Of a stretch of DNA of 64,000 nt, positions 15,277 to 15,962 are shown piece after piece (position 1 is the first letter of the stretch; every line of letters begins with the position of its first letter). The stretch is taken from the sequence record MK047718.1. One strand, written 5' to 3'. A program made the position numbers and the translations under genes. The DNA is from Escherichia phage p000y. Under the pieces are notes generated by a model that saw only the letters and a list, made by a program, of their open reading frames with translations, made no database searches and had not been told where the DNA came from.

Positions 15277-15507
15277 ATGTCTACTGAAACTATCGAAAAA
15301 CTGCAGTCTGAAATCGTTACTCTGAAATCTCGCATTCTTGATACTCAAGACCAAGCAGCTGCTATCCAGCAAGAATCTCAACAACTTGGTAGTGCTCTTG
15401 CTAAAATCGCTAATCTGGTTGGTATCACTGGCGAATCAGTTAAGATTGATGACCTGGTAGAAGCAGTACGTGAACTTGTTAAAGCTGAAACCGCAGAAGA
15501 AGAATAA
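15277..15507 (+). CDS. 57A: tail fiber assembly chaperone gp57A
   Basis: 76 aa coiled-coil; position and size as T4 57A. Confidence 0.85.
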
Positions 15508-15962
15508 TGAAATTTGAGGACTTTTCACAAGGCCTCTACGTCGCAGCTAAGTTTTCAGAATTAACACTTGATGCGCTGGAAGATCTCCAGCGTAAATTAA
15601 GAATTCCTAATCCAGTACCACGTGAAAAGCTTCATTCAACAATTTGTTATTCACGTGTAAACATACCATATACTACATCTAGTGGTAGTTATTCTGTTGC
15701 TGAATCAGGGCACTTTGAGGTATGGAAAACTGACGACGGCGCTATACTGGTTTTAGTTCTTGATTCTGAATATCTTAGATGTCGTCATCAGTATGCACGA
15801 GCTTTAGGTGCTACTCATGATTTCGACGACTACACTCCACATATAACGTTATCATATAACGTTGGCCAACTATCATTCAGTGGTGATGTAGCTATTCCGG
15901 TTATTCTCGACCGTGAATACAAAGAACCCTTAAAACTAGATTGGGCCGAAGACCTAAAATAA
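15507..15962 (+). CDS. 57B: 2H phosphoesterase gp57B (Acb1-type anti-CBASS nuclease family)
   Basis: 151 aa; two H-x-T/S motifs (HSTICY near residue 43, HITLSY near residue 112) typical of the 2H fold; synteny after 57A. Confidence 0.8.

Follow-up and report, generated by a model that had tools for sequence, protein, structure and literature searches.

Gene 57B of Escherichia phage p000y, a very probable Mosigvirus orthologue of the T4 anti-CBASS phosphodiesterase Acb1

Introduction

Does the short gene that follows the tail-fibre chaperone gene 57A in Escherichia phage p000y encode Acb1, a well-characterised viral enzyme that breaks down second messengers of bacterial immunity, namely the cyclic-nucleotide alarm signals of CBASS, and does it form a functional unit with its neighbour ipI? 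A preliminary description of this locus had answered both questions in the affirmative, proposing a 2H phosphoesterase of the Acb1 type within the 57A–ipI region and a small counter-defence cluster. The window considered here is the whole analysed stretch of 64,000 nucleotides from sequence record MK047718.1, read on one strand from 5' to 3'.

Acb1 was discovered by activity-guided fractionation as the product of T4 gene 57B and was named in the same work (Hobbs et al. 2022, PMC9117128), so that T4 gp57B is indeed the founder of the family, as the preliminary description stated. Acb1 folds into a compact 2H structure that contains a U-shaped pocket, and a lid made of C-terminal residues 145-152, which the apo crystal shows as disordered, closes over the ligand (PMC9117128). 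Bases are stacked by Y12, W74, F107 and W147, while E141 contacts adenine N6, which explains the requirement of Acb1 for adenosine (PMC9117128). Catalysis is of the acid-base type, needs no metal and relies on the HxT/HxT tetrad of H44, T46, H113 and T115, with a cyclic phosphate as intermediate; the H44A substitution abolishes activity, and the H44A/H113A variant is catalytically dead (PMC9117128). T4 phage lacking acb1 shows a more than 300-fold defect on CBASS hosts and grows normally in the absence of CBASS, and its lysate loses cGAMP cleavage (PMC9117128). Moreover, transposon sequencing showed insertions in 57B to be depleted when the host carried CBASS (10.1101/2025.11.20.689424), and deletion of the lid abolishes the function of T4 Acb1 (10.1101/2025.08.21.671373). 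Product and substrate profiles vary within the Acb1 structural group, in which the enzyme core sets specificity, and T4 Acb1 activates the Panoptes system by degrading 2'3'-c-di-AMP (10.1101/2025.08.21.671373).

The Open Reading Frame and Its Motifs

The gene and its principal elements are as follows.

15507..15962, plus strand: gene 57B/acb1, 151 aa plus stop, with an ATG start and a TAA stop; very probably the anti-CBASS 2H phosphodiesterase Acb1
15633..15650, plus strand: catalytic motif 1, HSTICY, aa 43-48; H43 and T45 are equivalent to H44 and T46 of T4
15840..15857, plus strand: catalytic motif 2, HITLSY, aa 112-117; H112 and T114 are equivalent to H113 and T115 of T4
15936..15959, plus strand: C-terminal lid, LDWAEDLK, aa 144-151, including the stacking tryptophan W146 (T4 W147)

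The reading frame is thus exactly the one that had been proposed, and both motifs lie within it. Its ATG is the earliest usable in-frame start, since an in-frame TGA located 21 nt upstream makes an earlier one impossible. Genes on the opposite strand over 57B were rejected as candidates, the ORFs there being just 30-35 aa long, and an Rfam scan of the whole window returned 10 tRNAs only, with no structured RNA in or beside 57B.

HSTICY and HITLSY are the sole H-x-S/T motifs of the 57B protein. At least two HxS/T motifs also arise in 13.6% of composition-preserving shuffles of this protein, and at least two HxT motifs in 2%. In other words, the motif pair by itself is weak evidence for the identity of 57B, and because shuffles often yield such a pair, the case rests on comparisons of the whole protein.

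Family Assignment and Distribution

Whole-protein comparisons place 57B in the Acb1 family, as the preliminary description had suggested. The Pfam Acb1 profile PF23474 matches the protein with E 2.7e-58 and 196.2 bits (cutoff 27), aa 8-149 aligning with positions 1-144 of the 144-position profile, while a scan of the protein against NCBIfam gave no matching model. In a sequence search of the PDB, the best matches were 7t26 and 7t27, both named 'Acb1' (E 1.4e-58), followed weakly by the phage phosphodiesterase entries 9q2g and 9q2y (E 0.0055). The protein shares 85% identity with T4 Acb1 (gp57B, NP_049750.1), without internal indels, and 63% with the Acb1 of Erwinia phage FBB1, which has been crystallised.

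Homologues of 57B are widespread. When the protein was searched by tblastn against 50,697 phage records, 1469 gave a match, most of them from T4-like phages of Escherichia, Klebsiella, Shigella, Acinetobacter, Vibrio and Aeromonas. The copy in phage FP43 is 100% identical, and copies with an identity of 95% or more occur in about 150 phage records. In a collection of 5.8 billion proteins, PF23474 was found on 85 of the 86 matches to 57B. Additionally, many members of the corresponding UniRef clusters are named 'Anti-CBASS protein Acb1', and the orthologue in phage Mizar, which has about 95% DNA identity over the 57B region, is annotated 'anti-CBASS Acb1-like protein'. The matches to PF23474, to 7t26 and in the 1469 phage records, which all concern the whole protein, put the identity of 57B far beyond chance.

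The window comes from a Mosigvirus genome. The 57B region is 98.1-98.5% identical to that of Shigella phage JK36 and, similarly, to that of many related E. coli and Shigella phages. JK36 belongs to Straboviridae, Tevenvirinae, Mosigvirus, the RB69-like genus, and RB69, the type phage of Mosigvirus, has arabinosyl-hmC DNA (PMC6024577). DNA identity to T4, a Tequatrovirus, is only about 75% over the region and 75.5% in the 57B gene. Between the 57B genes of p000y and T4, dS is 1.85 and dN 0.123, giving a dN/dS ratio of 0.066, which indicates that the protein has been under strong purifying selection since the Mosigvirus and T4 genera diverged.

The naming of the family in databases is inconsistent. 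PHROG 755 and many RefSeq phage records carry the label 'RNA ligase' for the Acb1 family, a label that reflects its LigT-like fold and not a tested activity. Mislabelling as 'RNA ligase' or 'hypothetical protein' is common, for instance in the RefSeq records of RB51, PP01, HX01, APCEc01 and T6, and few records only use 'anti-CBASS' or 'cyclic phosphodiesterase'.

Functional Residues and Predicted Structure

All nine experimentally defined residues of Acb1 are kept in the 57B protein, namely Y11, H43, T45, W73, F106, H112, T114, E140 and W146, whose T4 counterparts are Y12, H44, T46, W74, F107, H113, T115, E141 and W147. The numbering of 57B is that of T4 minus one because the T4 protein has an extra N-terminal methionine, and the two proteins are otherwise of equal length, with an identical tetrad, aromatic residues, glutamate and lid tryptophan. 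Conservation was assessed in an alignment of 63 Acb1 family members reaching down to 30% identity. H43, T45, H112 and T114 are invariant in all 63 members, Y11 and E140 are each kept in 61 of them and W146 in 59, while position 73 is Trp or Phe, and position 106 Phe or Tyr, in 62 of 63. The p000y and T4 proteins differ at 22 of 151 positions; none of these lies on a known functional residue, and most are conservative or located in the N-terminus and loops. The lid itself, LDWAEDLK in 57B and LDWADDLK in T4, shows one conservative change.

An AlphaFold2 model of 57B, built on the same 63-member alignment, reached a mean pLDDT of 88.9 and a pTM of 0.82, with low confidence only at residues 1-3 and 146-151. 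At the latter, which belong to the lid, pLDDT falls below 50, so that the conformation of the lid is not confidently modelled; the low values fit a mobile lid. When the model was compared with the PDB by Foldseek, the top match was 7T26, the apo form of FBB1 Acb1 (TM 0.85/0.94, rmsd 0.9 Å over 133 columns), followed by 7T27, its cGAMP complex (TM 0.85/0.92). Next came the 2H phosphodiesterase of Burkholderia phage BCSR5 (TM 0.57-0.69) and then E. coli LigT, Thermus TT0787, Usb1, plant CPDase, AKAP18 and viral 2',5'-phosphodiesterases (TM 0.4-0.6). The model thus combines two H-x-T/S motifs, at aa 43 and 112, with a LigT-like fold, the combination that defines the 2H superfamily. Structure prediction followed by superposition on Acb1, the check that the preliminary description had put forward for its proposed 2H phosphoesterase fold, speaks in favour of that fold.

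These structures differ from 57B in several respects. FBB1 Acb1 (7T26 apo, 7T27 with 3'3'-cGAMP) shares the 2H fold and the C-terminal lid; it differs in having Phe in place of W73 and Tyr in place of F106 of p000y and T4, as well as a one-residue insertion after aa 78. The BCSR5 enzyme, 2H PDE-9 (9Q2G/9Q2Y), belongs to the viral 2H phosphodiesterase structural group and cleaves 3'3'-cGAMP, but it is 17-19% identical to 57B, carries its lid at the N-terminus rather than the C-terminus, acts poorly on 2'3'-c-di-AMP and does not trigger Panoptes (10.1101/2025.08.21.671373). E. coli LigT and other cellular 2H enzymes (5LDI, 1IUH, 1VDX) have the two HxT/S motifs and a two-lobed β-sheet core, with a Foldseek probability of 1.0; however, they are 12-17% identical (TM 0.44-0.60), larger (165-185 aa), and act on RNA ends or 2',5' links, not on cyclic oligonucleotide signals.

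Proposed Mechanism and Alternative Explanations

If 57B works as its T4 and FBB1 counterparts do, the course of events can be outlined. In an infected CBASS host, the CD-NTase would make cyclic di- or trinucleotides, such as 3'3'-cGAMP, cUA, cAAA or cAAG. Acb1 would bind these molecules in the U-shaped pocket between Y11, W73, F106 and W146, the last contributed by the lid, and one adenine would be read through E140. The H43-x-T45/H112-x-T114 tetrad would then provide acid-base catalysis, in which the 2'-OH of adenosine would attack the 3'-5' bond, and the resulting 2',3'-cyclic phosphate intermediate would be hydrolysed. The linear 3'-phosphate products would be unable to activate CBASS effectors; in effect, cell death by abortive infection would be prevented and the phage would complete its replication.

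The relationship to LigT that underlies the name 'RNA ligase' in PHROG 755 and in many RefSeq phage records suggests a different reading, in which 57B would be a LigT-type 2'-5' RNA ligase or an RNA-repair 2H enzyme, maybe acting on adjacent phage tRNAs or on RNA ends with a 2',3'-cyclic phosphate. The gene lies 1.4 kb from a cluster of 10 tRNAs, and Acb1, too, hydrolyses a 2',3'-cyclic phosphate in the second step of its reaction. Nevertheless, the Pfam family 2_5_RNA_ligase2 (PF13563) matches aa 76-131 only, at 15.3 bits, which is under its 27-bit cutoff, and the TM-score to LigT is 0.44-0.54 at 12-16% identity, as against 0.85-0.94 to Acb1. The residues specific to the Acb1 substrate, that is, the stacking aromatics, the adenine-reading glutamate and the lid tryptophan, are all kept, and the behaviour of T4 lacking acb1, namely the lost cGAMP cleavage in its lysate together with normal growth without CBASS, also argues against a role in RNA repair. 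A LigT or RNA ligase identity was rejected on the sub-cutoff profile score and the low TM-score, and it is very improbable. It would be harder still to believe that 57B is an inactive remnant, retained only through translational coupling to the essential chaperone gene 57A. Its start does overlap the 57A stop, and T4 can dispense with the gene on CBASS-free hosts, but the frame is intact, every catalytic and binding residue is kept, the dN/dS ratio is low, and nearly identical copies occur in the roughly 150 phage records mentioned above.

The substrate range leaves somewhat more room. A true Acb1 could have had its range or main target shifted in this lineage, for instance towards type III CRISPR cA3, or away from 2'3'-c-di-AMP so as not to trip Panoptes. 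The 22 substitutions relative to T4 could accommodate such a change, profiles differ even inside the Acb1 structural group, whose core sets specificity (10.1101/2025.08.21.671373), and the triggering of Panoptes by T4 Acb1 through 2'3'-c-di-AMP implies that selection to change specificity exists. Yet no substitution falls on a known substrate-contact or catalytic residue, and the dN/dS ratio reflects conservation rather than adaptive change, which makes such a shift improbable; quantitative substrate preferences of 57B could still differ from those of T4. Thus, 57B is very probably the Mosigvirus (RB69-like) orthologue of T4 Acb1 (gp57B), an explanation that none of the results speaks against, and its enzymatic activity, substrate range and role in vivo would be expected to follow those established by the T4 and FBB1 experiments. 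The gene, its family, structure, mechanism and genomic position have all been described previously, and no new biology is involved in this assignment.

Gene Order and Expression Signals

The surroundings of 57B contain the following features.

Upstream of gene 1, plus strand: gene 3
14538-15272, plus strand: gene 1, dNMP kinase
14915..14922, plus strand: TATAAATA, the T4 late-promoter consensus, inside gene 1 and about 360 nt upstream of 57A; a candidate late promoter for 57A-57B
15277..15507, plus strand: gene 57A, tail-fibre assembly chaperone (PF17594, E 2.2e-23); the last base of its TAA stop is also the first base of the 57B ATG (TAATG)
15977-16005, plus strand: sigma-70/T4-early-like promoter match, TTTACA-17-TACTAT with TG, in the 57B-ipI spacer (9/12 match)
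15985-16011, plus strand: 12-bp hairpin in the same spacer, overlapping the promoter match (-17.7 kcal/mol, z = -2.96)
16040..16327, plus strand: ipI, internal (injected) head protein I, IPI* precursor (PF11634, E 1.2e-50 over aa 20-95)

The order of genes, all on the plus strand, is gene 3, gene 1, 57A, 57B, ipI, three small ORFs and 10 tRNAs, which is the T4 arrangement. The position of 57B between 57A and ipI, as in T4, agrees with the preliminary description. One difference lies in the junction with 57A, where the overlap is 1 nt here and 4 nt in T4.

Translation of 57B is likely coupled to that of 57A by termination and reinitiation, because the sequence upstream of the gene (gaagaagaata before the ATG) offers no good Shine-Dalgarno sequence and the start and stop codons overlap. 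Transcription may begin at TATAAATA, a motif that T4 shares at the corresponding position of its gene 1 and from which a late promoter of 57A-57B can be inferred. This candidate fits published data in which T4 57B and vs.4 are expressed mainly in middle and late infection, as well as the timing of cGAMP cleavage, which sets in about 15 min after infection with T4.

Downstream of 57B, the signals suggest a separate start for ipI. A sigma-70 scan of positions 13800-17400 gave 14 sites against 12.8 ± 4.1 expected from shuffles; only sites conserved in T4 were kept, and individual sites in this interval are to be regarded as suggestive. The hexamers of the spacer match are conserved in T4, and since this conserved match is accompanied by a stable hairpin in the 57B-ipI spacer, ipI probably has its own transcription start. 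The hairpin was also considered as a terminator and rejected, as it is without a T-run. A terminator scan found no intrinsic terminator after 57B, its matches lying inside genes 3 and 1. The top sigma-70-like match of the region, TTTACA-17-TATAGT with an extended -10 TG (10/12), is located at 16332-16360 on the plus strand, directly downstream of ipI, with the small ORFs and tRNAs following it.

The ipI Neighbour and the Proposed Cluster

The gene that starts 78 nt downstream of 57B has the attributes of a true ipI, in keeping with its PF11634 match and with the neighbour named in the preliminary description. Its product begins with a 19-residue capsid-targeting leader whose end, STLTE|A, is of the L/I-x-E type, and mature IPI* is identical to that of T4 at 72 of 76 positions (94.7%), the differences being V47/I, V84/A, Q86/H and T93/N. 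Exactly the same four differences from T4 IPI* have been reported for RB69 IPI (PMC6024577). T4 injects IPI* along with its DNA, and the protein blocks GmrSD, a type IV restriction enzyme of E. coli CT596 (PMC6024577); by homology the p000y protein would be expected to inhibit GmrSD as well.

The gene is closer to T4 than its neighbours are. For mature IPI*, dS is 0.91 and dN/dS 0.026, compared with a dS of 1.85 for 57B, while the 19-aa capsid-targeting leader is just 63% identical to that of T4. This closeness could be due to very strong constraint, or else the ipI cassette could have passed between genera more recently.

The proposed counter-defence cluster can be accepted in part. Judged by homology to characterised T4 proteins, 57B and ipI would both be counter-defence genes, and that they lie side by side is a genuine feature, shared by T4 and RB69-like phages. 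That they act as a unit is a different matter. The likely coupling of 57B is to 57A rather than to ipI, and ipI appears to have a promoter-like element of its own. The two proteins would also act far apart in time, at the two ends of the infection cycle: IPI is injected with the DNA, whereas Acb1 activity appears at about 15 min. Moreover, IPI occurs in 290 phage records against 1469 for Acb1 (the latter by tblastn), or about one fifth. Other T-even phages carry different internal-protein genes in the slot that follows 57B, such as ip5 or genes for 'internal head proteins', and these variable contents fit the description of the slot as a hotspot for injected anti-restriction proteins. The 57B-ipI 'cluster' is thus better described as adjacency to a variable internal-protein slot than as a demonstrated functional unit.

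Other Features of the Window

Further features of the window are the following.

16377-17255, plus strand: three small ORFs (61-68 aa with a hydrophobic stretch; 126-132 aa; 95-97 aa) between ipI and the tRNA cluster
17353-18184, plus strand: cluster of 10 tRNAs (Gln, Leu, Gly, Pro, Ser, Thr, Met(CAT), Tyr, Asn, Arg), by Rfam
30996-31262, plus strand: homologue of Acb2/T4 Vs.4, a cyclic-nucleotide sponge of 88 aa (PF24729, E 4.4e-18; PDB 7uq2 'Vs.4', E 9.8e-31)

The three small ORFs correspond to PHROGs 1692, 1411 and 2023, all of unknown function, and match no Pfam family. According to the Mizar annotation, they are homologues of T4 'segB-ipI intergenic region' proteins, and they sit in a neighbourhood rich in anti-defence genes. 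Only a small chance is to be given to the proposition that 57B, ipI and these ORFs, up to the tRNAs, make up an anti-defence island with at least one undescribed counter-defence protein, or that the 22 substitutions in 57B shift its substrate profile, for example by sparing 2'3'-c-di-AMP and thereby evading Panoptes.

T4 possesses 8 tRNA genes, so that tRNA-Tyr and tRNA-Asn would be extra in the p000y cluster. The tRNA-Tyr prediction is barely above the Rfam threshold, at 30.2 bits against 29. A MotA-box-like ATGCTTTA is found at 17257, upstream of the cluster. In Mizar, a homing-endonuclease-like ORF of the NUMOD3/DUF559 kind, which p000y lacks, splits the tRNA cluster.

The Acb2 homologue is 98.9% identical to a Mizar CDS annotated as a T4 Acb2 match, and p000y carries the genes for an anti-CBASS nuclease and a sponge about 15 kb apart, as in T4. 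Acb2/Vs.4 (7UQ2) is the other anti-CBASS protein of T-even phages and shares with Acb1 its target, the CBASS signals. Its fold, the Acb2/Tad1 hairpin, is unrelated to that of Acb1, and it acts as a sponge that sequesters nucleotides without cleaving them.

Conclusions

Correct identification of Acb1 matters for annotation, as many records, including those in RefSeq, use 'RNA ligase' or 'hypothetical protein' for this enzyme. Furthermore, it aids the prediction of host range when T4-like phages are used in therapy against E. coli strains that carry CBASS. The same enzyme is also a liability against Panoptes-type systems, which sense the loss of a decoy nucleotide.
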